Origin: Menidia menidia
Lineage: Eukaryota
Direction: 5' to 3'
NCBI GenBank assembly: GCA_048628825.1
Contig: CM109626.1
Coordinates: forward strand, 17,085,077 to 17,149,076
Length of the DNA: 64,000 nt
A program made the position numbers and the translations under genes. The notes below the pieces were generated by a model. That model was not told where the DNA came from. It made no database searches and saw only the letters and a list, made by a program, of their open reading frames with translations. This document shows positions 2,739-55,116 of this stretch, piece after piece (position 1 is the stretch's first letter; each line of letters begins with the position of its first letter).

Positions 2739-2845
2739 CCATGTTATCTTCCCCGGTCCTGGTTGGCGAGATATCACCGTGACCTCATGACCCTTGTCTC
2801 TGAGCAGGCGTGTCAGCTCACGGCCCACAAAGCCAGACCCGCCTC
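2739..2845 (-). CDS. sdr39u1: sdr39u1 exon encoding the NAD-binding GxxGxxG region. The ATG-containing exon lies further upstream and was not located.
   Basis: (G)GGSGFVGRELTRLLRDKGHEVTVISRQPGPGKITW matches human GGGTGFIGTALTQLLNARGHEVTLVSRKPGPGRITW. It is bounded by the acceptor ccatgcag| and the donor TGG|GTATGA. There is no in-frame ATG in this exon. Confidence 0.7.
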
Positions 2846-12026: not shown

Positions 12027-12310
12027 GACCAGGACCATAGAAATCAAACATACCAGGACCATAAAAATTTAGCATACCAGGACCATAAAAAATCTAACGT
12101 ACTAGGACCATAAAAAACATAAAATACCAGGAACATAAAAAATCTAACGAACCAGGACCATGAAAAACATAAAATACCAGGACCATAAAAAATCTAACGT
12201 ACCAGGACCATTAAAAACATAAAATACCAGGACCATAAAAAAATCTAACATACCCGGACCCTAGAGATCTAACATACCAGAACCGTAGAGATCTGCCATA
12301 CCAGGACTGT
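12027..12310. repeat. Minisatellite of about 11 copies of a roughly 25-bp unit (ataccaggaccataaaaaatctaac and variants)
   Basis: Direct tandem repetition is visible in the sequence. Confidence 0.85.
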
Positions 12311-13334: not shown

Positions 13335-13660
13335 GAACCAAAGGCAGGCAAGGAAGGAGGAGGAGGAGGGGGGGGGGGGGGGGGTGATAGCTAAGAGTTG
13401 GGGGGAGGAGGAGGAGGAGTCCAGGCAGAGGGAGCCAGAGAGAGTGTGTTTATTTAAGTTTTTCGTCTCCTGACTCAGACAGAGAGCAGACTACAGAGGA
13501 TAATGAGAACCAGATCTTTGGTGGAGAGGAAGAGGAGGGAGGGGGAAAGAGAGTGCAGAGAAGAAGGGGGGGAAAGAAAAAATGAAGAAGAAGAGAGGGG
13601 CAGGAGGGGAGAGGGGGGGGGGGGGATGACAGCCAAAAAAAGAGGGGGGGCTGTGGCCAC
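13335..13660. repeat. Polypurine (GA/GGA-rich) tract containing two poly-G runs of about 20 nt, roughly 0.9-1.2 kb upstream of the nfatc4 start codon
   Basis: This is a low-complexity purine-only stretch (ggaggaggagg...gggggggggggggggg...gaagaagagagggg...). Confidence 0.85.
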
Positions 13661-14379
13661 AGGAAATAGGCCCTCTCATGTTCACTAAGTGACAGTTACC
13701 ATTGCAGCCCTGGTGGCCGTGCAGCCGTCGGCCCGCCGTGTGTCCTGTTCACCATTAGAATATTAATCACCCTGCTTTTTAGGGCTGGAGATGTGCAACA
13801 GGTATCTGAGCGGGCGGGGATTCGGACCTGAGTTTAAAATCCTGACGGTAGAGGAGGAAAAAAGAAGTGGATCGTGTTGGGATGAAGCAAAACGAGATCA
13901 GATCAGCCACATTAGCAGTGTGTATTTACATGTGAAATGAATGTGACTAAAAGAGAAACCTCCACAGAGAGCCAGGAGGGGGAGAGGAGGGAGGCTGGAG
14001 GCTGGGCAGGGGGGGATTCATGACTGACACATGGAAGGTCCTATGGGAAATGAGTAACGGACCAACTGGATCTGGGAAACCCACCCAAAGGCAATTAAGG
14101 GTAAAGGACGACAAAAATATCTGATAAACTTTTCTCCCCTCTCTCGTTCTTGATCTGGACAGATGGGAAAACAAGGAGTCATGGACTTAACGAGGAAAAA
14201 AGAGTGAAATGTCTTTCTTATTTATTTATTCTTACTTGGGAAGATGTTTTGGAAAACACCGTGAATTATCCGGAGCGAGGATCTGATTTGGAGCCATCAG
14301 CTTTTTTTTTTAAACTTCTGCAAACGGCCAAACAAGGGGGAAGCGATCTGGAGCAAGTTGGTGGTCGTAAAACTGGCGA

Positions 14380-15140
14380 TATGGGGACTACTTTTGCGCA
14401 ATGACACGCTGAGAGGGGGGGAAAGGGGGAAAAGTTCGAGACCACGGAGAAAAAGTTTGGCTTTATTTTTACGCGGCGCACCGAGGACGTCCCGGGCCGC
14501 TGTCTCCGTAGCGGGACGCGCGATTTGGGATCGGTGTGCGTGGGTCTTCGTCCCCCTGCTGCTGGAGGGGCGATGGGGGCCGCGCCGGGCGCGGGCTGGG
14601 AGGAAGGCGAGTTCGAGTTCAAGCTGGTGTTTGAGGAGGACCCGGTGCGCACGGCCGAGCCGGACACCGCCGCGGCCGGGAGGGAGGAAAGCGAGGGCAC
14701 CCTGCTGCAGCTGGACTCCTCCGAGAGCCGCAATCCGGGTCAGAGTCTTGACGAGATTACGCAGCCATGACGACAGGAAGTCTGAGTGGCCTTGAAAAGT
14801 TACTTAGTTTAATAGCCTACGCGGTGTAAACTGCGCGTATACAGAAACGAGGGCCCGCGTCTACGCGCTGGCTCTGATTGGGATGCGAGTTTGTGCGTGA
14901 GATGAGATGGCATGTGATGTGATGTGATGTGTGCGTGCCTGTTTCCGTGAGCGAGTTTTTGGATTCGTCGTGCGGTGCGCTCGTTCGGAGCGCGGTATGC
15001 GTTTGCGTGCATATCTGACCGTATTCTTGTTCCTTGAGTGCTTTTTGCGTGCGTGCGTGTGTGTGTGTTTGGGCATGTGTGCGTGCGGCCGCAGACTCAA
15101 TGTGTTTCTAATCAGCTGTGCGTGTGAGCAGAGTTAACAG
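14380..15140 (+). promoter_or_regulatory. nfatc4: CpG-island-like region spanning nfatc4 exon 1 (putative promoter / 5'UTR), with an adjacent GT/GC-rich tract at 14880-15130
   Basis: CpG density is very high, for example cgcggcgcaccgaggacgtcccgggccgctgtctccgtagcgggacgcgcg. A palindromic C/EBP-like TTGCGCAAT lies at about 14394. Confidence 0.5.
14573..14738 (+). CDS. nfatc4: nfatc4 coding exon 1
   Basis: MGAAPGAGWEEGEFEFKLVFEEDPV... matches human NFATC4 MGAASCEDEELEFKLVFGEEKE. The donor is G|GTCAGA, phase 1. Confidence 0.8.
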
Positions 15141-15199
15141 CTGCCATCTGGGGAAGGAACCTCAACCTCTTGTGTACTGAGCGCACCAAAGAGGCTACA

Positions 15200-15238
15200 C
15201 CCCCCCCCCCCCCCCCCCCCCCCCCCACCCCCCCCCCC
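15200..15238. repeat. Poly-C tract of about 39 nt with a single A interruption (a G-run on the minus strand) in nfatc4 intron 1
   Basis: The homopolymer is visible in the sequence. Confidence 0.9.
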
Positions 15239-18200
15239 TTCTTTTACTCGGCTTCCATCGCCTTCGTTTTTAACCTCCACTCCCTCACCAACACACACAC
15301 ACACACCTCACATCCACGCACTCGTTTGTTTCCCTCTGGCACTCACTGGTATTACCACACCCCGAGCCACTGCTTTCCACCCCCCCCCTTTCGTTGCAAA
15401 CTTTTCACGTCAAAGAGCAGAGGAACTGATCACTGGTGTCACTAAACGCGTGCACGTTTCCAGTTCACAGATGTCTTCACCTAAATATTAGTGTGACTAA
15501 ACTTTGTTTTTTGAAAACCACCTTACAAATGACAGATTTGAAGTTTTATTCACAGTATTTAGTCTCTCCTGGCTCCACATGCCTTCAGGGTTGAGGGTAT
15601 CTCTCAGTAATCTATGTGTTAATTTGGATGTAATGGAGCCCAGTCCAGGGGTCAGATGAATTAGATATTTCACATTCCTCCTCATATCTCACAGGCTGCT
15701 TTAAATAGATATTGTTTTTTCAATCTTATGCAAGATACACAGAAATTAATATTGGTATGCCTTAAAAGGACAACTTTGAGTATGGGGTTAATTCAAGGAG
15801 GTCAAGTGTTTTTTATTTGCTCTTAACCTCGTATTTGATATGATCCCGACTTTAGCAAGACTACAAGAGCACACCAATTCATCACTCAAATTCACAAATC
15901 TAATAAACCATTATTTTATACACAATAGAACCCATAGAGACCACCACATGTTGAAAGTAAGACATTTGACCTAATCAGGAAAACCATCAACACATATGTA
16001 AAGGAAAGATAGACAGGTAGACAAAATCATGTTTAATACATGAAGCATTCGTTCTTCTTTCAGATATGAGCTCAACTAATATGACTTGCTTTCTTATTGA
16101 ATTAAAATTGAGTTATTTTGATTTGATTTTTGGAAAAAGTCAAGATAACTTCGACTTTACAGTCCCAGAGAAAAAGAAAAATCCCTGTTTTTGTTCACGC
16201 CGCAATGCATCGTGGGTAGGGGTGACGTAAAGAGGGAATCTCTGTGGAACAGCTCCAGTTTCTGCACATTACAGCAGAATAAAGACGTCCTCTATTCAGT
16301 CATTCGTTTGAACCCAAATGCTCTTAAAGAGGTGAAGACGAGACTAAATGAATTACTGAAAAGTACACCAAGATGAAGAAGATCAGAGAGGAGAGGAGTG
16401 GAGCAAAGTCTGTGGTATTTGTGCAACAGCTGCTTCTCAGTGCTGAACAATGGGCTCCAGCTTCTGTTGTTAAGAGGGAACATGTCAACCAACATGCGAC
16501 TTTAGTGTCAGGATCCAGGTTACTTGTATTTTTTTTCTTGTCTTTGGGTTTCTTTATTTTCTTGCTTTGTGGTTTTGCTCTGCTTTGTGTCCTTAGTTGG
16601 CATTTTGTTCGAGATGAGTTTGTTTGTGTTCTTAAGCGATCATTATTTCCTTCTTTTTTAGTCGATATTTGTCTTTTTTTAGTTACATTTATGGTTTGTT
16701 TTTGGCTTTTTATGACAGCGAAAAGCAGAAATCCGACTCAGGCTGCTTTCATATCTGATGCTTTCCAGAGAGACCCCCGTCTGAAAGGTCGCCTCATATT
16801 TCAGCCCAGTTGTCTCTGATCGAAGGGAGACAGGGGTCACAGCGCTTTGCTGTTGGGATGCTGCGGGATCGAGCTTAAAAATGGACGACACAAGCGCAGC
16901 TTGGCATTTTGTCAACTTCACCTACACAACTTCAGAACTGCTACACGCTTGCTGCCTCGCGTACCGCCCAAAATGACCTCATAAAACATGTGTGTGACAT
17001 CACATCCTCAGACTGCTCCAAGAATCAGATTCAGAAAAAACTTTATTTACCCCCAGGGGCAATTAGCGGTCCCTGAATAAGTCATATGTAGCATTGACAA
17101 AATATACAAAATTCTTAAAGCAAGCAATTACGTAAACGAAAAGGCAAAAAATGTTGAAAACAGCCATTAGAAATGAAAAACGTCATGCAGAGAAAAGCTG
17201 CTCTGACTTGAATATGATGTTTTCTAAAAAAGTTAAAACAGAGGGGAATTTTGAGGTAAATTTGATCTGACAGGGTGTGGAAGCTTTGCAAACAAACCTC
17301 AGTTTTCCCACTTTGCAACACTTAGAACAATCAATTGTACCTAGTTACTTTTGAGTAAAGTAATTGCTGGCAAAACCGCCTATAACGCTTCACCAAATTC
17401 ATAATCCATGCTGCATCATGAAGCTCAGGATCTAACATTTGGTCAAAAGTGCAGTATTTTGTGACCACTGTTGTGGACTCTGAAGTAGAGTGGGGGGTGG
17501 GAGCTAAGGAGGTCAGTTTAGAGCACTTTCTTGGACTCTAAAAGAGCTTTTTACTGTGTTCAATAAGTGTTTGGTAAGCAGTGAGGTCTCATAAACTGCA
17601 CACACACACACACATGCCAAATCTGTGTTTCAAGCAACTGCAAAAAAAAACTCCCAGAGAAGAGTTACCTCAGCACTACAGCTTTAATCACTTGGAAATA
17701 TTTGTTTTGCCAGGAAACATTTCAAGAGATTTTTCAGCCCAAGTCTCAATTTGCTGGCGGTTTCTCTTCGTGTCCTCGTTGCCCAAAAATTGCCTGAGTG
17801 GCCGGCTGCCGAGCGGAGCAGCAGCGATCAGATGGAGCCTGGCTCATTACAGAGCAACTACTGTTTGGCCTCGTGTGGAAGCTGTCCCCGCAGCCCTGGG
17901 GATGAGGGGTTGTGTCCTCCTCTCTGTGGGCGTCGGGTAGACTATGAAGACGTTTTCTATGATAGAAAATGTTATTGTTTAATGTCATTATTTGCAGCAC
18001 AGAGTGGGATTTTTAAAGGAAAAGCTGTCTGATCACCATGACTTGCTTCAAGATTGAATTTCGCACGTTAATATATGAAACAATTCAAGTTTTGTTTCTT
18101 GAAATATGATATTATAATCTTCCTATTGTGTCTATTATTGAAACGTTTAGGACCCATGTTGTTTTGCAGTGCTGCTCAGTAGACTGATGCATTGAATTAT

Positions 18201-40499: not shown

Positions 40500-43040
40500 C
40501 AACTAACCAAGGTCAGATAACAGATAGATGAGAACAGAAAAATATATTTAAAAATGGAAGGTTTGGCATAAATCCTTAGTTCATTAATACTTTCTAAATC
40601 CAAGAAGGAACATGTTGACTTATGTTTAGATTTGATCTGCAGAACGGAAATGGCACAAATCAAAAAATCCAGATGATCTAACAAAATTTCAGGCACTGCT
40701 GTCTGCATTCTCTTTAAGCATGACTGATGCAAAAAAGACTTTCTATACTGATAAGATTCACAGTACAACCGACACTCGAAAATTATTCTCCATCTTCAAA
40801 AATCTGCTTAACCCTCCTCCTCCGCCACCTGTTACTAGCTTAACGGCAGACTCGTTCGCCTCATTTTTTACTGACAAAGTGGCAGCTATAAGCAAACAGT
40901 TTACTGAACGGCTTGCACATGAAACTTCTCATAGTACATATACAAGCAGAAGTCCTACTGCTTTTTTCTCCTCCTTCGCTCCCCTCACTGAGAGCAATGT
41001 GTCCAAACTTCTCACATGTAGCCGTCCTACTACATGCCTGCTGGACCCAGTTCCTACAAACCTACTCCAGTCCATAGCTCCTACAGTTACTGCAGCAGTC
41101 ACACATGTGATCAATGCTTCGCTGACAACTGGCACATTTCCTAACTCATACAAGCAAGCTTTGGTCACACCGCTGCTCAAAAAACCCTCTCTCCCACCAA
41201 CTCAGGTGGAAAACTATCGGCCGGTTTCTCTGCTTCCATTTCTGTCAAAGACCATTGAAAGGGCAGTCTTTAAGCAGGTCACAGACTACCTCTCACAAAA
41301 CAATCTCCTTGATACAAATCAATCTGGGTTTAAAAGTGGCCACTCCACTGAAACGGCTCTGTTGTCTGTGACAGAAGCCCTAAAAGAGGCAAGGGCAAAT
41401 GCCAAGTCCTCAGTACTTATCCTTCTTGACTTATCAGCCGCATTTGACACAGTCAATCATGACATCCTTCTGTCTATACTCTCGAGTATGGGCATCACAG
41501 GGAGAGCACACTCCTGGTTTGAGTCGTACCTCACTGGTCGATCATTTAAAGTATCCTGGCTTGGTCACACTTCTGCAGTGCACCACCTCGCCACAGGGGT
41601 TCCTCAAGGTTCAGTACTTGGACCTCTTCTCTTTGCTATATATACCACTTCCTTGGCCCAGATCATTCAATCACATGGTTTCTCCTACCACTGCTATGCT
41701 GATGATACACAGCTCTATCTGTCATTCCCACCTGATGACCACTCGGTCTCAGCACGCATCTCAGACTGTCTCTCTGACATATCAAAATGGATGAAAGCCC
41801 ACCACCTCCAGCTGAATCTCTCAAAAACTGAACTGCTTGTCTTTCCAGCCAAACCAACTATTCACCACAATATTCACATCCAAACTGAATCCCTCTCTCT
41901 GACTCCATCAAAGGCAGCAAGAAACTTGGGTGTCATGATTGATGACCAGCTGACCTTTAAAGATCACGTTGCCTCTGTTTCTCGATCCTGTCGCTTCGCA
42001 TTACTAAACATAAGAAAGATCCGGCCGTACCTAACACAACATGCTACCCAGCTCCTGGTGCAGTCTATGGTCATCTCCCGCCTAGACTATTGCAACGCAC
42101 TCCTGACTGGTCTCCCGGCCTGTACGGTAAAACCTTTACAAATGATCCAGAACGCGGCGGCGCGCCTGGTCTTCAATCTGCCCAAAAAATCTCACGTCAC
42201 CCCTCTGTTCATTGAACTCCACTGGTTACCTCTGGCTGCCCGTATCAAATTCAAGTCCCTGATGCTAGCCTACAAAGTGCTTAAGGGTATGGCTCCCATC
42301 TACTTGAATCCCCTTGCAAAGGCTTATGTCACAACTCGATCACTCCGGTCATCAATGGATTGTCCTCTAGCAGTGCCTTCACCACGCTTAAGACAATCCA
42401 GACTGTTTAATGTGTCGTTCCAAGATGGTGGAACGACCTACCAAGCTCCACAAGAACAGCAGAGTCCCTGTCTGTTTTCAAGAAACTCTTGAAGACCCAC
42501 CTCTTCAAAGAGCATCTCCTATCCTAACCCTAACCCGTACCTCTACCCCCCCACAGCTCCTTCTGTAGCCCCTCTACCTCTATCTCTATCTCACCACTGA
42601 CTCTGATCAGTGTTTCTGTTCTATATAGTTTATTGTCATTGTGATGAGAAATGTAATATTGTGTCTACTCTGTAAGTCGCTTTGGATAAAAGCGTCTGCC
42701 AAATGCATAAACATAAACATAACATAAACATAGATTTTCCATTAGATTTTTACTTTATCTGTGACGTTCATGTAAATTACAAACCGTTTTGTTTATTTTA
42801 AGAATGGTGCTGCGACACTGAGCTCATGTATTATCTATATGGTTATATTCTTTATACTTCTGGAAGGCTTTTAATGCCCTGCAGCGCTGCACCACTACAG
42901 CATTTTTAGTTGTTTCTGTATGTTTTGTATGTCTTTTTTGTATTGTTTTATGGCTTTGTTGTAAAGCACTTTGAGTACCATTTGGGTATTGTAAAGGGCT
43001 ATACAAATAAAATTGATTGATTGATTGATTGATTGATACT
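40500..43040 (+). mobile_element. 5'-truncated non-LTR retrotransposon of the L2 clade. It has a 590-aa reverse-transcriptase ORF (40720-42492), a 3' tail carrying the conserved teleost LINE/SINE tail motif and a terminal (GATT)n
   Basis: Reverse-transcriptase motifs are present (LLDLSAAFDTVNH, GVPQGSVLGPLLF, YADDTQLY). No endonuclease domain lies upstream. The tail tgtaagtcgctttggataaaagcgtctgccaaatg at about 42670 is shared by fish L2-type LINEs and their partner SINEs. (gattgatt)n lies at 43013-43040. Confidence 0.8.
43013..43040. repeat. (GATT)n microsatellite forming the 3' end of the L2-type LINE
   Basis: attgattgattgattgattgattgata. Confidence 0.85.
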
Positions 43041-44589
43041 CCCAAATTCCTCTTCACTCTATGACTCACAGAGTTATGATCACATTTCAGTAGAATTCGC
43101 ATGAATCAGGAGCTGGTCCATTCATGTCAGAGGTTACTGACCAATAAGACTTGGTTGTGCCATGTCCAGCCTTCCTAAAGCACAGAGCAGGTCCATCCCA
43201 AAACAACAAATGTCCATCACATCCAGAAATCTAGGCTTTTTCTGATGGAGATCCTCAAAGAGCTTTGTCAAGTGGAGCCCAGCGCAGAATTATTTTACCT
43301 GTGACCTACATAAATGACACATTTTTACTCATTTATTTATTATCATTATTCATTATTGAGAATAATAAATAATTAATTTATTCTCAGGCATCCAAAAAAG
43401 GAATATGGCTAACAAACATTAGAGTACAAATCATTATCAAAAAGATGCTGTTGCTAAAGAAAACAAAACATCTGAAAATAACTGAGTAACATGTTCAGGG
43501 TTTAAAAAAGTAGAGAGCATCTGGTGGATTTTTTCAGAGGTGGCTGTAATTTGGCTAGGGTGTTGTTTTGAAACTAAGCAACAAAGCGGATGAGTGCACA
43601 AGCAGCATAGACAGTCACAGAAGGGACAGGTCCAAATCTGACAGTTCAACATCTGCAGTACAGAGACACAATTCACCATTCAACAGGCACTGAAACCCCC
43701 TTCCACCCCAAACCCTCACCTCACATCAGAAATTAGTTTAGATTTTTTTATATTTTCAAAATGTTCTTGATTTGAAGGTCTTATTCCAGATTTAGAGGGC
43801 CATGTTAGCCAACATTAGCTGACAGTAAGCAAACAGTTAGCTAACCGGTATCTAGCAGATGACATCTTTCCTGTTGCCATGGTAATGCATCACAACAGAC
43901 TAATCAGATCTGCTGATAGAGGTCCTTTCAGCAGCACCGGAAAACATTAAAAATGTTTCAGAAAACTGGTTTTCACAGAAAGAAATCACACTAGAAAATC
44001 TAAATGGATGGATGAACACTTATCTACAGATGCTGTTGGAACAGAGTGCACTGATCAACTAAAGCTTTTTCGTATTTAATTTTTTTAATACTGTGTTTTT
44101 ATGTAAATAGTTGTTGGAAAAGAGTATAAAGTAATGTAAGAAGAAAAAGAATAAGTACATGAAAGGAGGAGACTTTCACTGAATGGGCAACAATAGTAAA
44201 GTGACCATCATTTCTGGACTTCCAAGTATTTCCATCTGCTCATAAGACAGTTTACAGGCCTCTATCTAGGCTTTTCTGTTCAGTATAGACACCATTAAAA
44301 TACTTTATATTAAAATCATATTCATGATTAATCATAGGTCATATCTAATTGAACATATTTCATATCATAATGAGCAAACAATGCTTATAAATATACATTT
44401 TAAAATAACTTTTGTAATAATCATAACTTCAATGAATCGCAAAGAATTTTAAATTTAGCGGATATTTTTCGTAAAAGTACAAATTAAATATATTAACAAT
44501 TAGCGAAAAAATAAACAGAATGAATCAACTTCTGTAAAGATGACAAAAGGGAAACACCTCACGGCTTCGGCCACTAGATGGCGCCATGT

Positions 44590-44697
44590 GAGTCCGTTCG
44601 ACCGAAGGCCGTGACGTAGATGAGTCGTCGACAGTTTTACAGCAGAAACGTCAATATTCTGAGACCTTCGGTTGGTGGCTGCAGTTTGGAGAACATC
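44590..44697 (+). promoter_or_regulatory. pex19: Putative pex19 core promoter with a YY1/CTCF-like motif GGCCACTAGATGGCGCCATG at about 44593-44612 and a CRE-like TGACGTAG at about 44620
   Basis: The motifs were read directly, about 80-100 bp upstream of the pex19 ATG in a CpG-containing segment. Confidence 0.35.
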
Positions 44698-44761
44698 ATG
44701 GCGTCAGGAAAAGAGGATTCGTCCGGTGGACACGACGCCGAACTGGACGAACTGTTGGACA
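44698..44761 (+). CDS. pex19: pex19 coding exon 1
   Basis: MASGKEDSSGGHDAELDELLD matches human ...ADRELEELLES. The donor is A|GTGAGT. Confidence 0.8.
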
Positions 44762-44984
44762 GTGAGTGTTGGCACTAGGGTTGACCGGAGGCGACATTTT
44801 GGCAGAGTCTTGCGGTATCTTCTGGTGTTAAACTTGACGGTGTCAGTCGCTTTGTTTAACCGTGTCAGCGGTTCAGGTGCTCGGTGGGACCTCCGGTGAA
44901 GCAACGTCCGTTGCTGACCGTGGACCGTCAGTCGAAAGGCTGCTCGTGACATTTGGAATTTGAAAAAAAAGAAGAAAATATTAA

Positions 44985-46312
44985 CCCTCCTGTTATGTTC
45001 ATTTTTTAGGAACAGCAATGCTGTTCCCGGGTCAGTTTGACCCGGTGCATGTTTAATTATCCAAAAGATGTCTGAAACCCAAAAAATCCTAACAAGCATT
45101 GTTAATATTTCATTACTAACTTCATTACTAACAATTCTATCAATATTTAGTGCAATGGTCTTTCTTACCTCTAACAGGCAATGATCCAATTATGATAATT
45201 CACTCGTTTTCTTTTTTTTTAAACTGCATGTTCAAACTTTTTTTAATGTTTCTCCACTTTATTACTTTTGAAAGACCAACATATAAAACACAATAGTTTT
45301 ACACAACATTGAAACTAAATTTAAGATTGAGGGGCCCTGTCCTTGATTACCAGCAGCTCAGCAGGGAGATCAGCCCTGTTCTTTCGGACAGTTCTGACCA
45401 TTGTGAGCTTTTTCTTTAGAAGCTCCTGACCTAAGTTGTAGTTTGTGAAAAAATGGTCACAGGTTATGTTCTGTCCCCTGAGACCCTGTGCCATATGGAG
45501 CACAACACTTGTGCCCTGATTCTTCTCTGGGGCTCCTCCAACCGGCTTTCCAGTGTAAACCTGCATGTTCAATGCATAGCTGGTGTTTGCTTCATATGCT
45601 GCCCAGATTTAGCTGGTTTGAAAGGCATGTATTGCCTAAATGGGCAGCGACCTCTGAATGCCACCAGCCTTTCATCCACTGTGACATTAGGGCCTGGGTT
45701 ATAGAGTAGTGGACGTTGCTCTACCCACTTGTCCCACACTGTCCCAATAGCTGCCAGCTCGTCTCTCTCCCGTCAACCAGCCCTTGTCTCTTGATTATCA
45801 AATTGGATTACTCTGGAGAAAATGTGAAATGTCTCAAGAGACATTGTGGCTCAAAATATAGCCCTGCCTGTCTCTGCATCCCACAGACTGGCTGTCGATT
45901 CATCCTTAGACTTACAGACCCCAGCCAGGACGAGGAACCCCAAATACGCATCTAAACGCCTTTTGTCCGGCTCCTTCCACTTCTCCCCAAAAACACGCCT
46001 CCCTTCAAGATTAGTCAGTTCCCAAATGATTTTCTGCATTGAATCTGGCATGACCAGCTCAAAAGCTGACTTGATGTCAGTCACATGAGTCACTGCCATC
46101 TTAGTGGGCCCTGGCACTGTCTTTATGATGTTTTCTGCAGACAGTTTTGCCTTACGCATATTTGGGGATGAAGACCACTGTATTTCACCATTTTTTTACA
46201 TGAATGCCATGTTTGGAGGAATAGGAATAGCAATTCCATCATCAGGTTCAAAATCATAATCATTAGAATCAGAATTTAGCTCAAGATAGTCTTCATCTTC
46301 AGACACATCCTC

Positions 46313-46351
<39 letters not shown>

Positions 46352-46694
46352 TGTGTGTGTATAGGTGTGTGTGTGTGTGTGTATGTGTGTGTGTGAGTGA
46401 GATTGGGGTTAAACATGTCTCACAGTTGCAAAGAAAGAAATAGTCTGACATTTCTGACACCATTTTACCTCCAGTTTGACTGCTGGGTCAAATTGACCCG
46501 AACAGTATCTATGTGATATAAACATGCAGGGGGTGGTTCCAAATATGTGAGATGAACCATTTTCATATTATATGTTGATTACACTATTTAAGGCAAGCAG
46601 AAGAAGTTTCATACTAAAAAAATATTTTTAACTATTTTTCCCAGATCTTCAAACTTTAAAACGGGTCAATTTGACCCGCAACATAACAGGAGGG
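44985..46694 (-). mobile_element. Decayed piggyBac-superfamily DNA transposon of about 1.7 kb in pex19 intron 1. It has perfect 15-bp TIRs (CCCTCCTGTTATGTT), TTAA target-site duplications at 44981-84 and 46695-98, and frame-shifted transposase remnants on the minus strand
   Basis: The TIR and TSD were read directly. The remnants ...GPTKMAVTHVTDIKSAFELVMPDSMQKIIWELTNLEGRR...LGFLVLAGVCKSKDESTASLWD and ...NITCDHFFTNYNLGQELLKKKLTMVRTVRKNRADLPAEL match piggyBac transposase (GPTRMC...IVKWTNAEISLKRRE...FGILVMTAVRKDNHMSTDDLFD and NITCDNWFTSIPLAKNLL...GTVRSNKREIPEVL). Subterminal gggtcaaattgaccc palindromes are present. Confidence 0.75.
46318..46400. repeat. (GT)n microsatellite inside the piggyBac-like element
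   Basis: gtgtgtgtgtgtgtgtgtgtgtgtatgtgtgtgtgtgtgt... Confidence 0.9.
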
Positions 46695-47411
46695 TTAATG
46701 ATTATAACGCAAAGATGACAGTTCCTGTTGAACATTGACAGGTTTATGCACGCTTACTAAATAAGCTTTCTAACTCAACCTTTTTTCTTTTAAAATTAAT
46801 TCGAAATACGTGTTCGTGAGTATTTTGCTGCTTTAGAAAGGACTGGAAGCCACATTTTCCGAAGAAATGTATCTAGGCTCAATGTGTTGTAACTTTACAA
46901 TTCACATTAGTTGAAAACTTCATTTGAAAATGTTCAGAGGATTCACCTTCCAGTGAACACAAAGCTTCACAGTGCTGCTGAAAGATACAGATGTAGCGAT
47001 CAGTGTTGTTAGGGTATTAAACTGGATACAGACACCATTCAGAAACACACGAAGGAAGGCAGATTAATTTAGGGGAACACACTTTTCTTATTAAACAAAA
47101 ATCTAGTTTGTAAATACACTGGCACAAAGATGAGCAGCTAAACTCTGTATTGACTGTCTCGTATCCCATCATATGAACCACCTCCTTCACAAAAAAAAAG
47201 TAGCTTTTTGTCGCTAAAACGTGTCAAAACGGAACATTTGTCAGTGTTGAATTGTGCGGTGACTTTGCTTATTCAGTGGACCCATCCGTTGCATTAGTCA
47301 GGTCGAGGAACCAAACTAGTTATCCCCACTAATGTGGTTTTTGGAGAAATATTGCAACAAGACATGCATGTCTTTCTGGCTCAGGTCAAAGGTCATCTCT
47401 CTTTTCTTCAG

Positions 47412-47500
47412 GTGCTTTGGACGACTTCGACAAAGCGTCTGCTCCTCCAGCACCTGAACCTGCAGCTGCTTCCTCCTCTGCCAGCGCCAGCTCAGAGAAG
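47412..47500 (+). CDS. pex19: pex19 coding exon 2
   Basis: SALDDFDKASAPPAPEPAAASSSASASSEK matches human SALDDFDKAKPSPAPP.... Confidence 0.85.
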
Positions 47501-47880
47501 GTCGGCCTTTCTCTCCTGTCTGGATTGCACTTGTGTTCTTTCATCAGGTTGCAAAATATTTCACAGTCAGCTGGTCGCAAGATGTTTTGGAATCAGGCGA
47601 TTTGTCAGGCTTCAGTTGAATAATTCATTTGCTTTTCTATTTCCTTTTTTTTGGAACTCTGGATATAGTTTGGTTGTTGCAGAGCGAATCTCGTTAATGT
47701 TCATGTTGTTCTTTAGTTTGTTCGATCCAGAATGTGTGGGAAGTTTACTTGAAAGGAAAATAGTTTTATCCATTATTTCAAGTTTGAAGTACGAGAACTA
47801 CCACAACAAGCCGGAAATTAAATTAAAAAAGGTTTCTGTGTTCTTGCTTCTATCACCACCTGTAGCCCCCCCCGCTAGAG

Positions 47881-48028
47881 GACAGCAAACTCTTTGAGAG
47901 TCTGTTTGAAGGGGACATGGCTTCCCAGGCCAGGGAGGAGTGGGAGAAGGCCATGACAGAGCTGGCCCAAGAGGAGCCAGAACTGCTTCAGCACTTTCAA
48001 AAACTATCAGAGGCTGCAGGAAAAGTTG
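47881..48028 (+). CDS. pex19: pex19 coding exon 3
   Basis: DSKLFESLFEGDMASQAREEWEKAMTELAQEEPELLQHFQKLSEAAGKVG matches human ...FQELFDSELASQATAEFEKAMKELAEEEPHLVEQFQKLSEAAGRVG. Confidence 0.85.
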
Positions 48029-48110
48029 GTAAGAGCCACATCATTTAATTTTGAACAGGAGAAATTCTTTGTCTCACTCTGAAATTCTTGTGCTTCCATT
48101 TTCTCAACAG

Positions 48111-48196
48111 GTACCGACACTGCCTCCCAACAAGAGTTCACTTCCTGTCTTAAAGATACCCTTCGTGGCCTTGCAAAAAATGCGGACAACCTGCAG
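48111..48196 (+). CDS. pex19: pex19 coding exon 4
   Basis: TDTASQQEFTSCLKDTLRGLAKNADNLQ matches human SDMTSQQEFTSCLKETLSGLAKNATDLQ. Confidence 0.9.
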
Positions 48197-48271
48197 GTAG
48201 GTCACATCTGCAGTTGTTTTGAAGCTATAAGATGAGAGTGATAACTAACTACCTGAGTTCTGTCCTGTCAG

Positions 48272-48445
48272 TCCACTGGACTCGCTGGAGATGACCTGGT
48301 AAAAACACTTGAAGGCTTGGGGTTGGATGAAGGCAGCGAAGGAGGTGGGGAGGATGGCAACATCCTGCCCATCATGCAGTCCATCATGCAGAACCTTCTC
48401 TCAAAGGAAGTGCTTTATCCATCTCTCAAAGAGATCACCACCAAG
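48272..48445 (+). CDS. pex19: pex19 coding exon 5
   Basis: ...GNILPIMQSIMQNLLSKEVLYPSLKEITTK is near-identical to human GNILPIMQSIMQNLLSKDVLYPSLKEITEK. Confidence 0.9.
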
Positions 48446-48522
48446 GTGAGTCTCTGTTTCCACAGTTGACACAACTCAGGGTCCTTTTTAGTGCATGTAG
48501 TAACGGGAACTTACCTTCACAG

Positions 48523-48693
48523 TACCCAGAGTGGCTGGACGCCAATAAGCCAAGCCTCAGCACAGAGGACTACCAGCGCTACGAGCAGCAGGCCAAAATT
48601 ATGGGAGAGATCTGTAAGCTGTTTGAGAAAGAAGACGAGCGGGCCGAAGATAAGGAGAGAACATTTGAGAGTGTCATGGACCTGATGCAAAAG
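48523..48693 (+). CDS. pex19: pex19 coding exon 6
   Basis: YPEWLDANKPSLSTEDYQRYEQQAKIMGEICKLFE...FESVMDLMQK matches human YPEWLQSHRESLPPEQFEKYQEQHSVMCKICEQFE...FEMVLDLMQQ. Confidence 0.85.
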
Positions 48694-49121
48694 GTGACAC
48701 ATTAAAACACTTCCATTAAACAGATGGTGTTTTTCCTAAGTAGTAAGTTAAATATTTTGTCATATTTGCTTAGTGAACCCTAAATTATTTTTTGATATCT
48801 GACCAGATTTGGCAGAGCTGAACAGAAATCTGCTCACTAGTGAGAAATACTATGCAAAATACTTTTTGCATGGCTGGCTCCTGTTTTGATATCTGTCCAT
48901 AGGGGGAAATTGATGTTAAATCAGCATTTAAAACTATCTTTCTTTTTTTTCCCACAAATGTGATCAATAAATGTATTACATTTGTAGATGGGTTGTAACT
49001 CAGGTTGAATAGAGGTGGTAGGTAATTTCTGTGTATGACATGAAAGAGAAACACGCGGAGACTTTCCTTTTCAATGAAAAAACACTAAAACTGATCATTC
49101 ATACAGATGTTTTATTTACAG

Positions 49122-49166
49122 CTGCAAGACCTTGGCCAGCCACCCAAAGAGTTGGCAGGGGATACT
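49122..49166 (+). CDS. pex19: pex19 coding exon 7
   Basis: LQDLGQPPKELAGDT matches human LQDLGHPPKELAGEM. Confidence 0.8.
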
Positions 49167-49712
49167 GTAAGTCCCATCGCTACATTCGTTTCTATGAAGT
49201 GTGCAAAACCAGTGCTATATTTTCAGATTTGATGTAGAACCGACGTTCTTTCTGCAGTATTTGTAAATATTGAGATGTTTCTGATGTCCACATGAATCAC
49301 AGCGATGCAGCTTACATTACTTTTCTCTAATTAATTCAGAAAAGCTCAAACCGTTGTGGTGTGTAACAATTTTAACAGCCAAATGAAAACTAACAAGATT
49401 GCAAGCTGGTTTTCTTTTTTTAATTTTTGTTATTTGAACTTTATAAAAATGAATACATATGAATCTGAAGCATCTTTGTCTCCATTCATCCATTAAATGG
49501 TGTTTTAAAAGGATGAGTCCTTAATGTCAGACATTACAAATATAGCTGATGGCAAAGTAAATTCATTAATGAGTCAAACTGCTTCATAATGACGAATTGT
49601 ATCCTTTATTCAGACTGAGTAGAATTATTTGGTAGCAGAGTTGTGGGGGAGTCAAAGTATTTTAAATGCTTTCTTCAGGACTGAATTCTCCCCCTTTCCT
49701 CTTCCCCTCCAG

Positions 49713-49799
49713 CCTCCCGGCTTTAACTTTGACATGGAGTCTCTGAACCTCCCCGGAGGCCCTGGGGCCGGGGCAGCAGAGCAGTGCTCCGTCATGTGA
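49713..49799 (+). CDS. pex19: pex19 terminal coding exon with the C-terminal farnesylation CAAX box (CSVM*)
   Basis: PPGFNFDMESLNLPGGPGAGAAEQCSVM* matches human PPGLNFDLDALNLSGPPGASGEQCLIM*. The summed CDS is 864 nt, or 288 codons. Confidence 0.85.
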   Translation, partial: PPGFNFDMESLNLPGGPGAGAAEQCSVM

Positions 49800-52068
49800 G
49801 GCGGCGCGGTCCATCAGAACTTCTGGAGTCGAACTGCCGCTCTGAGTTTGTCAGCTAAAAAGAGGGGTGACAGAGTGAAGCAGAGGTCAGGCAGCAGGGT
49901 GACCAAACACGGTTCTGCTTTTACAATGAAGGAGTGTGCACACGAGAGGAGCCACGAAAACAGCAGGACAACACACTCAAACACACTGTCATCTCTGTAA
50001 AATCACTGAACGCACAACAGAGAACATCTCTCCTTCTCTGCCGTAGCTTGTCAGCGTTTGCCACATCTCCACGGTTCATTTTAACAGCATAGAAAAAAAA
50101 CGACCACTGTGTTTTTACATACCGTTTAGCCTCATGGCAAACTCTATCGAGCCACTTCACGGGTTGGAACGGTGCCTTTTCACTTTAAATGAGTTTAAAT
50201 TATTGTTTTAAATTAACATTCTGTGCAGCACTTCAGATTATACTTTTAAAATAACATCGATTTGCAAAGTCATCCTAGGTTTACAAGCAGCAAATCTTGT
50301 TTGTGTGGGGGTGTTAAACAAATTGTAATATCTGTACAGGGCTAGATTAAAACTTTGATAAGACGATTATTAACAAACTGGAAACAGATGAGTGTATGTT
50401 TGCCAATTAAGTTAAAAAAAAAGAACTGAGATAAGATGGTGATTTGTCCGGCTTCAGTCCCTTTAATGACCCTTTCCCAACATCTTAGTCTCCATTCCCA
50501 ACTAATTATTTGAAGTGATGTATGTTTTGGCCTCTGGATGCCTCTGCTGTGGTAACGGTGATCATTACAGTCTTGAATTCATGTGCTAAGTGCTTCCTGT
50601 GTGAGTGTGTTCAATGTACAGTGGTGGTTCCTTTTGGTTTGGAGTCCCGGCGTGAGCCCCAAACACCACGCTGTTTCCAGAAGAAGTAGCAGAGTGGCAA
50701 ACATCACAGTGTGTCCCAAACATGTCTGAATCCTGCTGGGTAACAACAACAGACTGATGTTTGCGCTTTTTGCCGGTGATGCTGGGTTTGTTTACCACAG
50801 CGACCATTTTGTGGGCGGACAAAAGTTTGCCAGTGTTATCGTGTGGAGAGGTCCAGAAATGACACGACCATCAGCCCATCAGCAAACGTACAATAAAAGG
50901 ATTTAGTCAGCTATGCACTGAAAAGAGATCAGAGTTGCATCAAAACGCTGAGGGGGGCTGTGGTCAGGAGTGTAAAGACCCGTGTTTTCATCAGAGGGTG
51001 GGAGGTACGACCTATTCAGCTCTCAGGGCCGTCGCCATCCCACAGCACTGTTTAAAAGATACCACCTGTCATTTGACACCGCATTGTTTTGTAAATATAT
51101 AGATTAAAAATGATATAATGCAACTCCTTTTTGTCTTGTGAATTATTTTTATTGCCTTTGTTTCTGCATCCGGATGATAAAAAAACTCATGTTTTACCCA
51201 TCACATTCACCATTGTTACCTTTACGTTTAAAATCCTGAACAAATCAGCACATTAGAGCATGTAAAGCACTGCTTTGTGTGTAAACTGAAATTATTTTGT
51301 CCTTTATTGAAGGAACAAGAATTTAGACTTCAGAAGTTTAAGCTGTTAACCTTTAAACATTCACCTTTTGGGCCCTTTTCACCATCTGTGCATCTCTGTC
51401 ATTTTAAGAACCATAGCTTGGGGGTGACATTAACATAGACCATAAGACGACGTTTCAAGTTGGTAAAAATAATCTTTATGGCAATTTAAGAATACAAAAA
51501 TTATTTTTGAAATATTTCCTTCCATTGGTTTTAGTATAAGTTATGTAATGATACAAAAACAGATAGCCACAGGTGGAAATTATCTCAGTAAAATCTTTTT
51601 TTGATCATTAGAAATTTGATTTTTACTGAGTTTCAGTGTTTCCGTGTGGTTTGTGGTTTTAAATACGATATTCCCAGTAAATGATGTTCCGACATCACAC
51701 CACCTTTTTGACTTCGTCGTTCTATACACAAGCAGCCATTTACATTTAGAAATAGTGTTTATAGATTTATTATGATAGCGTTTGCACACTGTAATCAAAT
51801 TGTAAACCCCACAGAGAGGTTCTATGAATTGTATTTCTACGTTCTGTTGCCGTGGCCCTTCCTGCATCACATTTTGACTGCAAAACTTTATTGTTCAAAG
51901 CCGGAAGACAAAACAGGCTACGTGTCAGGAAAAGGAGAATCGGCTAAAGGGGCGAAAGCGACAAGGCCCCCTGAGTCTACCTGTCTGCAGTATTTCAAGT
52001 TGTTTTTGTTGTCGAGTTGGAGTTATCTTTCCAAATTTTTATAGGGAGACAACTGAGGACCTGTGACG

Positions 52069-52108
52069 ATGTTAACCAAATTTGAGACAAAGTCGGCCCG
52101 AGTGAAAG
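52069..52108 (+). CDS. copa: copa (coatomer subunit alpha) coding exon 1
   Basis: MLTKFETKSARVK(G) is identical to the human COPA N-terminus. The donor is G|GTAAAA. Confidence 0.9.
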
Positions 52109-52357
52109 GTAAAAGAAGTCTAACCATACAGTTAGCACAGTAGCTAACGTTAGCTAGCTGACTTATCTTTAATTGATTTGTAAAGAGACTGATGGCTAAT
52201 ATATTACCTTCGTAAGATGTTTATACAGTTTAAATCCTTATTGCAACGACGTCGTACACTGACTTTGTTTAGATGTATCTTTATTTAACAGGCACCGCAT
52301 TGTTTGTGTAGCTAACATTAAAAAAAAAAGAATGACAATTTGATGCGCTTTCTTTGA

Positions 52358-52504
<147 letters not shown>

Positions 52505-52574
52505 TGACGTGTCCGGTGTGAGATCCCTGTTAAGTCGGATGGAAATAACTCTTTGTTTTTGGTATTATCTGAAG

Positions 52575-52648
52575 GTCCCGTCAGAGGTATTGATTTCCAC
52601 AAACAGCAGCCACTTTTTGTGTCCGGAGGAGATGACTACAAAATCAAG
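52575..52648 (+). CDS. copa: copa exon 3
   Basis: [24 protein letters not shown] is identical to human. Confidence 0.95.
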
Positions 52649-52726
52649 GTAAGACTGTGGGAGTACCACAAAATTCTTATTTCCATAAGTGTTTGCTAAA
52701 ATTAAACTAATACTAATAATTCTTGA

Positions 52727-52870
<144 letters not shown>

Positions 52871-52989
52871 TAACAGTGATACTTTTGTTGATTTTTTTCA
52901 CTGTGCATAAAACCAAACTAATTCAATGGTGTTCAAAGCCTGTATATTGTCTCTTTTACTGTAATAATGAGTTATAACCGTACATGTAG

Positions 52990-53066
52990 GAGTACCCTTG
53001 GATTCTGAGTGCTTCGGACGATCAAACCATTCGCATTTGGAACTGGCAGTCCAGGACCTGCGTGTG
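52990..53066 (+). CDS. copa: copa exon 5
   Basis: EYPWILSASDDQTIRIWNWQSRTCV is identical to human. Confidence 0.95.
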
Positions 53067-53346
53067 GTAAGAAGCTCTGTGTGTCTTATTGTTGGGGACT
53101 GGAGTTTAGATTTAAGATGGACTTGACCATGGAATTGTGAATTTTTAGCATATCCACAGATTTGATATGACACAATTATTACACATTAATCATTTTTTCA
53201 TTATATATATTTTTTGTCTTAAATAGGTTCATTATATCATTAAATGCCAAACCTTGATTAATAAACTCAGGATTGTTTTTAAAATTGACTTTAAGATACA
53301 TCTTAAAAAGTGTTATTGAATAGATTTGGTTTTCCCTGAAAAATGA

Positions 53347-53529
<183 letters not shown>

Positions 53530-55116
53530 TAGTGGGCTGGGTTTGGATGAGGGGTTGTAGACAGAGTGGCTTAAAGAATGAAGAAGGAGGCATGGACAGG
53601 AATGATGTCAATTCCTGGATGTCTTCTTCTTCTTCATTTTGTAGAGGACAGATCTCTGTGGGCTGTTTGCAGAAACACTCTCCTTTAGAACAGCTAGACA
53701 CTGAATGAACTGAAGATTTATGGTGTGGCATTTGTTTGGGAATGCCGCACTGTAAATACAGATCAGACAGTTACAGCATAATTTTGAAGAAACAGGAGAG
53801 GCGTTTCTGTGACTTTGCATGCTCTTAAAGTGTTTGGGATGTTTTTTTCCTTTCCTCTAATGTCTTATGTTTTTACACTAACTGAATAATTTATTACCTC
53901 TTTTATGTTGTAACATTTTATGTATGAAAATGCCAGAAACTTGGATCTTTGACTCTCATCTGCCCTGTCTCTTTATGCTTTGACATTCTTTGTGCTTTGA
54001 GCATTATAGCATCCATCTTTGACGAGTTTTAAAACTTCATGAAATGACATGACATAACTACGGCATGGACAGTTTCATATTACTCTGCATGCTTCATGCA
54101 TGACCAGAATTATCCTCCCTGAAAGGACCACTTTGCACTCAAACTCTCCCTATAGAAAGTTCAAAATGTTGTTTGTACCACTTTAATTTACTCAAAGACA
54201 AATGTCAACAATAACCACTAACGGGTTTTTTTTTTTTTTAAACTAACATTTCCTAAGTGTTGATATTAAAATATTCTCATATTCAGGCAGAGTCTCGCAT
54301 GGTTGGATCTGCTACTCGGATATAGAACATAGATTAAGTCATTCTAACATGAATTTTCACTATCTGGTTTTAATGCATGTAACTCAGACATTCTAACTGA
54401 AACATGCACGTACCTTTTAAGATCACAAACTTTCCAGCTCATTCTCCTGACATTCAACGCCCCATCAGAGCACGTCTTTACAACGCGACCCACCACACAC
54501 CCCGCCCCTCATCAGCCAAGTCCCCCTGTGTCCTGCTTGTCCCATGCTCCCCCTGGAAACATCCACATCTGCACATGGGCTCCTAGAGCCCTTTCTTTCC
54601 TTTATATGCTTTTCCCCCTACTGCTGTTGAGCTACCTGTTCACCACACTGACTTATTGGGGTGAAATCATGAATACAAACTGTGTCTTCTTGTAGTTTTC
54701 TCTCCCGATCTCATAAGTCTTGGAGGTAATCGGTAATCTTGATCTGACATCCAGTCAAATCATAAAAATTCCTCTGTATTGATTCATTAACCTAATCAAC
54801 AGTTGCTGCTTTTAAGATTGCTTCCAGACTTAAGCTTTGGGGTAATGAGAAGGCAAAAGTTGTGTTAGTGTGTTTCAGCCCTGTGTGTGTGTTCGGTGGT
54901 CCAACAGTTTCCAATCCTTTCTTCCCTTATTTTTTAAATTTTTTTATTTTTTTGCTGGCTTTCTTCTCCCAGGATACTGGCCCGTATTTGACCATTTGTA
55001 TAATCTGTGTGTTATCCTTTGTGTTTTTTCTTCCACGGTTGTATCGGGGTCCTGCCCTGTGTAACATGAAAATGGCTTTCCTTGCGTGCGCACGGTGCTC
55101 TGAATGATGGTTCCAG

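Follow-up and report, generated by a model that had tools for sequence, protein, structure and literature searches.

The piggyBac superfamily was founded on piggyBac (IFP2; PDB 6x67/6x68) of Trichoplusia ni, an autonomous element of 2.475 kb that targets TTAA, carries short terminal inverted repeats (TIRs; 13 bp) of the CCC...GGG type with spacers of 3 bp and 31 bp (PMC5381638), and leaves a footprint-free empty site. Short TIRs beginning with C, typically CCC...GGG, are a criterion for piggyBac-like elements (PBLEs) generally (PMC5381638), and in structural group SG4 of Bouallegue et al. (2017, PMC5381638) the TIRs are accompanied by a palindromic subterminal motif, which makes the inverted and the direct repeats one and the same. 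Among teleosts, PBLEs named 'PGBD4-like' are found in Lates and Neoarius, and Teratorn, a piggyBac–alloherpesvirus fusion of about 180 kb with viral genes, is patchily distributed across species and has been suggested to mediate horizontal transfer.

The locus compared with these systems here lies in a 64,000-nucleotide stretch of DNA from Menidia menidia (the window), on contig CM109626.1 of assembly GCA_048628825.1. The preliminary description had placed a piggyBac-family transposon in the first intron of pex19, and tblastn with the M. menidia Pex19 protein (P0122) locates it there: the coding part of exon 1 occupies 44698–44761 and exon 2 starts at 47412 (plus strand), leaving an intron at 44762–47411 with a GTGAGT donor and a CAG acceptor. 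A human PEX19 sequence gave a lead to the exons only; the exon structure rests on P0122, and the Pex19 family was confirmed by PF04614 annotations of the matched proteins. The insertion makes up 1714 bp of the 2650-bp intron, and the transposon runs antisense to pex19. A TTAA duplication, CCC...GGG TIRs and DDE_Tnp_1_7 homology, by which the piggyBac superfamily is recognised, are all present, and there is little doubt that this is a defective, piggyBac-type element, flanked by TTAA target-site duplications and inserted antisense in pex19 intron 1 of Menidia.

The ends of the element are perfectly preserved. The left end (44981–44999) consists of TTAA followed by CCCTCCTGTTATGTT and the right end (46680–46698) of AACATAACAGGAGGG followed by TTAA, one the exact reverse complement of the other, just as had been claimed from inspection of the sequence. 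With the element read on the minus strand, the TIR at 44985–44999 (CCCTCCTGTTATGTT on the plus strand) marks its 3' end, which recurs in the Lates, Neoarius and Gymnodraco copies and in metagenome contig L007 described below, and the TIR at 46680–46694 (AACATAACAGGAGGG on the plus strand), identified from the sequence and a shuffle test, marks its 5' end. The TIRs match at 15/15 positions; the 20-nt perfect inverted repeat returned by a repeat search comprises the 15-nt TIR, the TTAA and one extra flanking base. When the terminal 19-mer was searched with up to three mismatches, only the two element ends were found in the 64 kb, compared to 0.01 matches expected from shuffles. The two copies of the target-site duplication (44981–44984 and 46695–46698) both align to one and the same TTAA of a second M. 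menidia assembly, GCA_907169785.1.

The palindromic subterminal repeats reported earlier could also be located, as three copies of GGGTCA-N3-TGACCC where 0.19 were expected. One of these, GGGTCAGTTTGACCC at 45029–45043, lies 29 bp inside the 3' TIR at the long-spacer end, while the other two are in the 5' region at 46485–46499 and 46663–46677, the latter 2 bp inside the TIR at the short-spacer end. The spacers are thus asymmetric in the orientation of the transposase (2 bp at the 5' end, 29 bp at the 3' end), similar to the 3 bp and 31 bp of T. ni piggyBac, and in both elements the short-spacer end is upstream of the transposase. The TIRs themselves differ from those of T. ni piggyBac in length (15 bp vs 13 bp) and sequence, and, unlike in that element, each of the three subterminal repeats is palindromic in itself. 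Since the motif serves as direct and inverted subterminal repeat at once, the element resembles SG4, an assignment made by description only. The palindromes lie within terminal non-coding regions (both minus strand) at 44985–45315, which is 91.4% identical to positions 2483–2816 of the Lates element, and at 46374–46694, which is 95.1% identical to its positions 1–325.

Between these ends lies a transposase pseudogene at 45323–46316 on the minus strand, which accounts for about 335 codons of the 1710-bp element and corresponds approximately to residues 18–352 of a relative of about 556 residues, as judged from tblastn coverage, Pfam and the 6x67 alignment. Joined over three stop codons and one frameshift, the fragments match PF13843 (DDE_Tnp_1_7) with E=9.2e-37 (127.6 bits compared to a cut-off of 22.4; profile positions 5–247 of 349), in agreement with the earlier reading of them as piggyBac transposase, a reading that failure of this profile search was to have refuted. 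The joined fragments also align to T. ni piggyBac (PDB 6x67) over residues 86–382 of 594 (E=1.6e-40), with 'tvDErl' opposite D268 and 'tcDhff' opposite D346, and the equivalents of the first two catalytic aspartates are consequently retained.

The reading frame had been described as frame-shifted and incomplete, and alignment to the relatives details the damage: in-frame stops at 46196–46198, 45851–45853 and 45773–45775, a frameshifting 13-bp deletion after 45611, and a large internal deletion with its junction at 45315–45324, all on the minus strand. This last lesion, placed by BLAST coordinates against the Lates and Neoarius copies, removed approximately 0.95 kb, and with it the transposase from about residue 353 to the end (some 205 residues at the C-terminus). 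The third catalytic aspartate (equivalent to D447), the second DNA-binding domain, the short intron and the Cys-rich domain all fall in the lost part. The deletion was misplaced in a global MAFFT alignment with the Lates copy, and its position is therefore taken from the BLAST segments. The extent of the missing part was set by a composite relative that aligns to residues 85–593 of 6x67, including D447 and the Cys-rich domain (E=2.1e-84); relative P0241 covers positions 5–349 of the DDE_Tnp_1_7 profile. Pfam did not recognise the 48-residue Cys-rich tail of the Lates relative on its own, and the identity of this tail rests on the end-to-end alignment to 6x67. At the other end of the pseudogene, the (GT)n array of the preliminary description was resolved by TRF as a (TG)42 microsatellite at 46316–46399, which in the alignment replaces a stretch of about 232 bp in Lates; this stretch contains the ATG and the codons next to it, and these are accordingly missing from the pex19 copy.

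The N-terminal region, first DNA-binding/dimerisation domain and two catalytic aspartates (the D268 and D346 equivalents) are therefore all that survives of the protein. Neither of the two features expected of an autonomous piggyBac, a complete catalytic triad in one open reading frame and a C-terminal Cys-rich domain, is found in the pex19 copy, the latter having been deleted. As it has no start codon, has lost approximately 205 C-terminal residues and contains three stops and a 13-bp frameshift, this copy is non-autonomous and unable to make transposase. The length of about 1.7 kb given in the preliminary description was accurate, but the 2.5 kb expected for a complete element was an underestimate, as the closest longer relative, in Lates, measures 2.8 kb.

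Relatives with the same TIRs were retrieved from Lates japonicus, Neoarius graeffei, Gymnodraco acuticeps and three metagenome contigs, so the family is represented by multiple copies with shared termini across these sources and the proposal that the TIRs would recur elsewhere is borne out. The Lates copy (BRZM01000024.1) is 2816 bp long and flanked by TTAA, is 90–95% identical to the Menidia copy over the shared parts, and has TIRs that match the Menidia TIR at 14/15 and 15/15 positions, indicating a full length of about 2.8 kb for the family. The copy in the ariid catfish Neoarius (CM050621.1), 93% identical, contains nested insertions and keeps the whole coding region. The Lates and Neoarius coding regions are 97.8% identical, each less than 1% from their common ancestor, and each has a single lesion: a 28-bp deletion in Lates and a TGA in the Cys-rich exon in Neoarius, but for which the coding sequence of the Neoarius copy, so far as it was examined, would be intact. 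In the relatives, unlike in T. ni piggyBac, a short intron precedes the Cys-rich exon. The Gymnodraco copy is 2.2 kb long with intact ends, and the MDSQ01 metagenome contigs L007, L008 and L009 hold TTAA-flanked copies at three different insertion sites, the one in L007 being an independent deletion derivative of 1375 bp, likewise with intact ends. None of the retrieved relatives is fully intact.

The teleost 'PGBD4-like' PBLEs of Lates and Neoarius belong to the same family as the pex19 copy, with TIRs, palindrome motifs and TTAA flanks in common. The 3'-side palindrome has its equivalent 47–48 nt from the 3' end in the Lates and Gymnodraco copies, and the 5'-side palindromes lie 21 and 199 nt from the end in Lates too, the first of them also in Gymnodraco; in Neoarius the presence of the 3'-side motif and of both 5'-side motifs was established. 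No Menidia protein was among the top protein matches, the Menidia annotation having been made on a repeat-masked genome (PMC8214408), nor among the cluster members of these matches, where the Neoarius copy surfaced. An exact look-up of the two longest reading-frame fragments (102 and 83 residues) in a public gene-position index returned no record.

The relation between filled and empty site could be examined directly, since GCA_907169785.1 has one uninterrupted TTAA at the exact insertion point. On the contig concerned (L004), positions 8327–10287 align to the left flank (window 43012–44984) and positions 10284–17605 to the right flank (window 46695–54000), so that the TTAA at 10284–10287 is common to both alignments, with no gap and no extra bases. 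The filled-site junctions read ...AAAATATTAA|CCCTCC and GGAGGG|TTAATGATTA, and the empty allele ...AAAATATTAATAATTAC. Such a footprint-free relation is a trait that the Menidia element shares with T. ni piggyBac, and the presence/absence comparison that had been suggested is thereby positive between two assemblies. As the site is filled in the window and empty in GCA_907169785.1, an insertion or a precise excision must have taken place since the two haplotypes, which differ by about 2%, split; the empty allele may either never have received the element or have lost it precisely.

The flanks are 97.2–98.4% identical between the window and GCA_907169785.1, with 2.8% divergence directly left of the insertion. 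With a single assembly for comparison, this degree of identity could also suit sister species, in which case the window would come from a congener, another Menidia species, in which the insertion may be fixed, and the difference would be interspecific. We regard this as rather unlikely, because Pex19 is the same as the M. menidia protein at 291 of 292 residues, and because the flank divergence falls within the 2.2% reported between M. menidia populations (PMC8214408).

The age of the insertion had been given as recent, which holds in a relative sense only: the element has accumulated more private change than its flanks. Of 955 sites, 37 (approximately 3.9%) are private to the Menidia copy, compared to 7–9 each for Lates and Neoarius, whose coding regions are whole. 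The per-lineage flank divergence is about 0.8–1.4%, so that the private change of the element is approximately 3–5 times higher. Set against the Lates and Neoarius copies, the Menidia copy differs to a similar extent at all three codon positions (18/17/22 and 22/20/16, respectively), a neutral pattern, and the differences to the Gymnodraco copy are skewed to third codon positions. As this codon-position-neutral change exceeds what the flanks allow for, the copy was probably already defective at its last move, i.e. mobilised in trans, an estimate that uses 37 substitutions, assumes equal rates in element and flanks and ignores divergence between the Menidia founder and that of Lates and Neoarius.

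A full-length autonomous copy could instead have landed here and decayed in place, with both deletions, the 13-bp deletion and the three stops all arising after insertion; the empty allele would then be a persistent old ancestral allele, and no defective copy would ever have been mobilised in trans. The extreme diversity and old haplotype blocks of M. menidia (PMC8214408) would accommodate such an allele, as would the 2.8% local divergence; microsatellite expansion and deletions can come about fast, and the Menidia founder may have differed from that of Lates and Neoarius. Private neutral divergence of 3.9%, however, is some 3–5 times that of the flanks, and the independent deletion derivatives with intact ends (1375 bp in L007, 2.2 kb in Gymnodraco) show that the family commonly circulates as defective copies, which together make decay in place rather unlikely.

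The cis requirements predicted for the family, two perfect 15-bp TIRs and three subterminal palindromes, are all kept in the pex19 copy. It is thus plausible, on the evidence of these intact ends, that the copy could still be mobilised in trans. By extension from the family, an intact copy elsewhere would supply transposase, which would bind the TIRs and palindromes of the pex19 copy; excision would proceed via hairpin intermediates, followed by pasting into a TTAA, and a single TTAA would be restored at the site left behind.

The 'PGBD4-like' names on the database matches could be taken to mean that the sequence is a piece of a host gene domesticated from piggyBac, but 'PGBD'-type names are given indiscriminately (Bouallegue et al., PMC5381638). 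PGBD and NeoPGBD genes are intact, single-copy orthologous reading frames without TIRs and under purifying selection; the pex19 copy is bounded by TIRs and a TTAA duplication, is interrupted by three stops and a frameshift, lacks a start codon and shows a neutral codon-position pattern of substitutions. No intact conserved reading frame was seen at the orthologous position across species; the element was looked for at the pex19 locus of Odontesthes and is absent there, as it is from the orthologous site in M. menidia GCA_907169785.1, and a domesticated gene can be considered extremely improbable. That the inverted repeat arose by chance, or that the window is misassembled, is equally improbable, as 0.01 matches are expected by chance, the interior is 90–95% identical end to end to TTAA-flanked elements of other fishes, and the boundaries are at once the exact limits of homology and the TTAA of the empty site. 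The element is not a MITE of a few hundred bp without coding remnant either, since it measures 1710 bp and still contains about 335 codons of transposase sequence, which identifies it as a deletion derivative. Nor is it a Teratorn-type herpesvirus fusion, as the 1710 bp consist of homology to the Lates element and the microsatellite, with no viral gene between the ends.

The nucleotide identity of 93–98% within the family spans an atheriniform, a centropomid and a catfish. Such identity among very distantly related fishes points to horizontal transfer as the best explanation for the distribution of the family. A search with the TIR and palindrome motif in a collection of viral contigs, mostly of phage, gave no matches, a weak negative for a viral vector.

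Conceptually the element is not new, being of a well-known kind, and its meaning lies in annotation, population genomics and transposon biology. The transposon takes up approximately 65% of pex19 intron 1 in the haplotype of the window, and gene models of this family that bear the name 'PGBD4-like' represent copies of a transposon and not host genes. The Atlantic silverside, in which structural variation is extreme, serves as a model of rapid adaptation, and the locus provides an insertion polymorphism resolved to the base pair, 219 bp downstream of exon 1 of a peroxisome-biogenesis gene, that can be genotyped from existing resequencing data of this species. The near-identity over Atheriniformes, Centropomidae and Siluriformes makes the family a clear candidate for horizontal transfer of piggyBac in fishes, and its copies are material for reconstructing an active vertebrate piggyBac. 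More tentatively, and as a possibility we would not favour at present, the family may represent a vertebrate piggyBac that is active today, or was until very recently, and that passes horizontally between distant ray-finned fishes; if so, a consensus of its copies could supply a fish piggyBac transposase that is new, active and of natural origin, together with defined minimal ends.

The ends of the element agree with the perfect 15-bp terminal inverted repeats (TIRs) flanked by TTAA that the preliminary description had placed at 44981-46698: window positions 44981-44999 read TTAA-CCCTCCTGTTATGTT and positions 46680-46698 read AACATAACAGGAGGG-TTAA, with both TIRs perfect. In a repeat search they came out as a perfect inverted repeat with arms of 20 nt, each made up of the 15-nt TIR, the TTAA and one further base, separated by 1680 nt. 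Allowing up to 3 mismatches, the 19-mer end matched at these two positions and nowhere else in the 64 kb of the window; shuffled sequences gave an expectation of 0.01. The surrounding gene, pex19, was located by a tblastn lead followed by a database search. It lies on the + strand, and its best match was the Menidia menidia Pex19 protein (P0122), the next-best matches, from Odontesthes bonariensis and other fishes, reaching only 87-88% identity. When P0122 was re-aligned to the window, 291 of 292 residues were identical, the single difference being A for T at position 40. The coding sequence of exon 1 (44698-44761) is followed by the intron 1 donor GTGAGT at 44762, the acceptor AG at 47410-47411, exon 2 from 47412 and further exons up to the stop at 49796. 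The 2650-bp intron 1 (44762-47411) encloses the element, as had been proposed, 219 bp downstream of the donor and with the transposase remnant antisense to pex19. At the M. menidia locus, a MARVEL-domain gene on the opposite strand lies upstream of pex19, and a very large WD40-repeat gene lies downstream.

The minus strand of the element carries a broken reading frame, which was joined across its stops and one frameshift for homology searches. The joined remnant matched Pfam PF13843 (DDE_Tnp_1_7), a search set beforehand as one on which the assignment could fail, with E=9.2e-37 (127.6 bits, cut-off 22.4), the match being limited to profile positions 5-247 of 349. Likewise, the remnant aligned with residues 86-382 of 594 of the T. 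ni piggyBac transposase (6x67; E=1.6e-40), placing 'tvDErl' opposite the D268 region and 'itcDhfft' opposite the D346 region, the residue numbers being those established for piggyBac. The remnant is frame-shifted and incomplete, as first described: three stop codons interrupt it (46196-46198, 45851-45853, 45773-45775), and 13 bp have been lost after 45611. Among longer relatives, the closest one found is a 2816-bp TTAA-flanked element from Lates japonicus (positions 4174-6989 of the locus taken from BRZM01000024.1); it shares 14/15 and 15/15 TIR positions with the window copy and is 95.1%, 90.3% and 91.4% identical to its three segments. Lates positions 1537-2482 (~0.95 kb) are missing from the window copy, the junction lying at 45315-45324, and positions 326-557, where the ATG (MTVQEALEV...) and first codons are located, are replaced by a microsatellite. 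The copy is thus incomplete at 1.7 kb, as had been stated, though the full length is ~2.8 kb judging from the Lates element instead of the ~2.5 kb once expected.

A 556-aa composite of the Neoarius graeffei protein P0241, which spans PF13843 positions 5-349, and the last exon from Lates aligned with T. ni piggyBac over residues 85-593, including 'tkggvDnlD' (D447) and the cysteine-rich tail. The window copy corresponds to residues 27-352 of this composite by tblastn, and from approximately residue 18 by nucleotide alignment. Since the third catalytic aspartate, the second DNA-binding/dimerisation region and the Cys-rich domain are all lost, the window copy cannot encode a transposase and, with its catalytic triad incomplete and the Cys-rich domain gone, is not an autonomous element. 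In the relatives, the transposase gene appears to have a short GT...AG intron directly before the Cys-rich exon (~6171-6377 in the Lates locus and ~5524-5700 in the Neoarius locus, splice sites read by eye), which contains its own (GT)n microsatellite. A second (GT)n is found in the 5' untranslated region; this is expanded in the window copy, where it takes the place of the start codon, and the array noted earlier is (TG)42 at 46316-46399.

The palindromic subterminal repeats were also recovered. The motif GGGTCA-N3-TGACCC occurs three times in the whole window (0.19 expected), always inside the element, at 45029-45043, 46485-46499 and 46663-46677. Viewed in the direction of the transposase, the first palindrome at the 5' end is 2 bp inside the TIR and another follows ~180 bp further inward, while at the 3' end 29 bp separate the palindrome from the TIR. 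In Lates the palindromes keep these offsets, at 21 and 199 nt counted from the 5' end and 48 nt counted from the 3' end; Gymnodraco has them at 21 nt (5') and 47 nt (3'), the third palindrome of its rearranged copy being at another place. All three motifs are present in Neoarius as well. Their conservation amid varying surrounding sequence suggests that the palindromes are putative transposase-binding sites. In T. ni piggyBac, the subterminal repeats are 19 bp long and lie 3 bp from the 5' TIR and 31 bp from the 3' TIR (PMC5381638), which is the same asymmetric spacer architecture; in both elements the end with the short spacer lies upstream of the transposase. The 29-bp spacer of the window copy holds an additional 9+1+9 palindrome, GGAACAGCA-A-TGCTGTTCC at 45011-45029; the Lates, Gymnodraco and L007 (metagenome) copies have only imperfect versions of it (GGAACACCATTGCTGTTCC and similar), and it is therefore probably incidental.

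Other copies sharing these ends, a prediction of the preliminary description, were found in Lates, Neoarius, Gymnodraco and metagenome contigs. Identity to the window copy is 90-95% for Lates japonicus (Carangaria, Centropomidae) and 93% for Neoarius graeffei (Otophysi, Siluriformes; ~1935-6644 of the locus taken from CM050621.1), the latter being 97.8% identical to the Lates copy in coding sequence, with each of the two <1% from their common ancestor. Gymnodraco acuticeps showed 81% identity and Erpetoichthys calabaricus ~85% over fragments. No fully intact copy was among those retrieved: the Lates copy has a 28-bp deletion, and in Neoarius the 505-codon first exon is open, the only lesion seen being a TGA in the exon for the Cys-rich domain. 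L007 (1375 bp) and the Gymnodraco copy (2.2 kb) are independent deletion derivatives that keep their ends and flanking TTAA; they show that defective copies are typical of the family. The fish transposon occupies three different TTAA sites on MDSQ01095701.1 (L007), MDSQ01013271.1 and MDSQ01082554.1, all of one 'metagenome' assembly, which evidently contains fish-host DNA.

The suggested presence/absence check was informative. In another M. menidia assembly (GCA_907169785.1, contig CAJRST010007779.1, locus L004), window 43012-44984 aligns with 8327-10287 (97.2% identity) and window 46695-54000 with 10284-17605 (98.3%), the two blocks having in common the TTAA at 10284-10287. A side-by-side reading shows the two flanks joined in L004 by one uninterrupted TTAA, with no other base between, which is the exact empty site expected of piggyBac insertion or precise excision. 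Assembly collapse would not give such a seamless junction. The orthologous Odontesthes locus and the 23 kb of L004 both lack the element, which makes the filled state a derived one in the Menidia lineage. The difference may lie between M. menidia and a close congener, but the flank divergence of 1.6-2.8% agrees with the 2.2% between-population divergence and 1.3-1.8% heterozygosity published for M. menidia (PMC8214408), making within-species polymorphism the simplest reading. A second presence/absence difference from L004, where the site is uninterrupted, is a 2.1-kb 5'-truncated non-LTR retrotransposon (LINE) at 40634-42730, with an open 618-codon frame (40636-42489, + strand; Pfam RVT_1, E=1.5e-38), an (ACATAA)-like tail and flanking TAGATTT target duplication. 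There is also a small indel or repeat-length difference just upstream of pex19 (window 43012-43037, L004 8274-8327), where 26 nt of the window are shared by both BLAST segments, which lie ~50 nt apart in L004.

The TTAA duplication, CCC...GGG TIRs, DDE_Tnp_1_7 homology, asymmetric subterminal repeats, footprint-free empty site and other copies with the same ends comprise all features tested for piggyBac-like elements, and on these the element is classed as non-autonomous, a deletion derivative within a piggyBac-like family of teleosts, which is a well-known kind; the interpretation first offered is supported. It does not have the features of Teratorn, a MITE or a domesticated PGBD gene.

With the Gymnodraco copy used for polarisation, 37 of 955 aligned coding sites (3.9%) carry substitutions private to the window copy, against 7 for Lates and 9 for Neoarius. 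Compared with Lates (18/17/22) or Neoarius (22/20/16), the window copy differs about equally often at all three codon positions, which is the neutral pattern, whereas 89 of 168 differences from Gymnodraco are at third positions, an excess pointing to a functional transposase lineage. If the insertion post-dates the haplotype split, change in place could amount to only ~0.8-1.4% (half of the flank divergence). As the private change exceeds this, the greater part of the neutral decay, and probably some lesions, would pre-date the last movement, and on balance the copy was likely already defective when it last moved, mobilised by transposase supplied in trans; this reasoning rests on small numbers, assumes equal rates in element and flanks, and takes the Menidia founder to have resembled that of Lates and Neoarius. 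An empty allele created by excision would lead to the same conclusion, a defective copy moved in trans. Of the 'recent insertion' first proposed, the young presence/absence state holds, while the copy itself is not young.

Non-coding pex19 flanks of Menidia and Odontesthes, of the same family, are only 73-77% identical, and only where alignable. Near-identity of neutrally evolving copies in a silverside, a centropomid and a catfish is not compatible with vertical descent, and horizontal transfer is the best explanation for the distribution of the family. The terminal motif had no matches in a viral contig collection (mostly phage), a scan that thus pointed to no vector. A strong candidate for recent transfer of this sort, across teleost cohorts, is the pair of Lates and Neoarius copies, given their coding identity and shallow ancestry. 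Horizontal transfer of the family fits prior knowledge: ray-finned fishes are known as a hotspot for such movement of transposons, and the per-copy transfer rate of piggyBac is high (10.1101/2024.12.18.629015). Two useful extras of the analysis are an insertion polymorphism resolved to the base pair, in a species that serves as a population-genomics model, and a clean candidate for horizontal transfer between orders.
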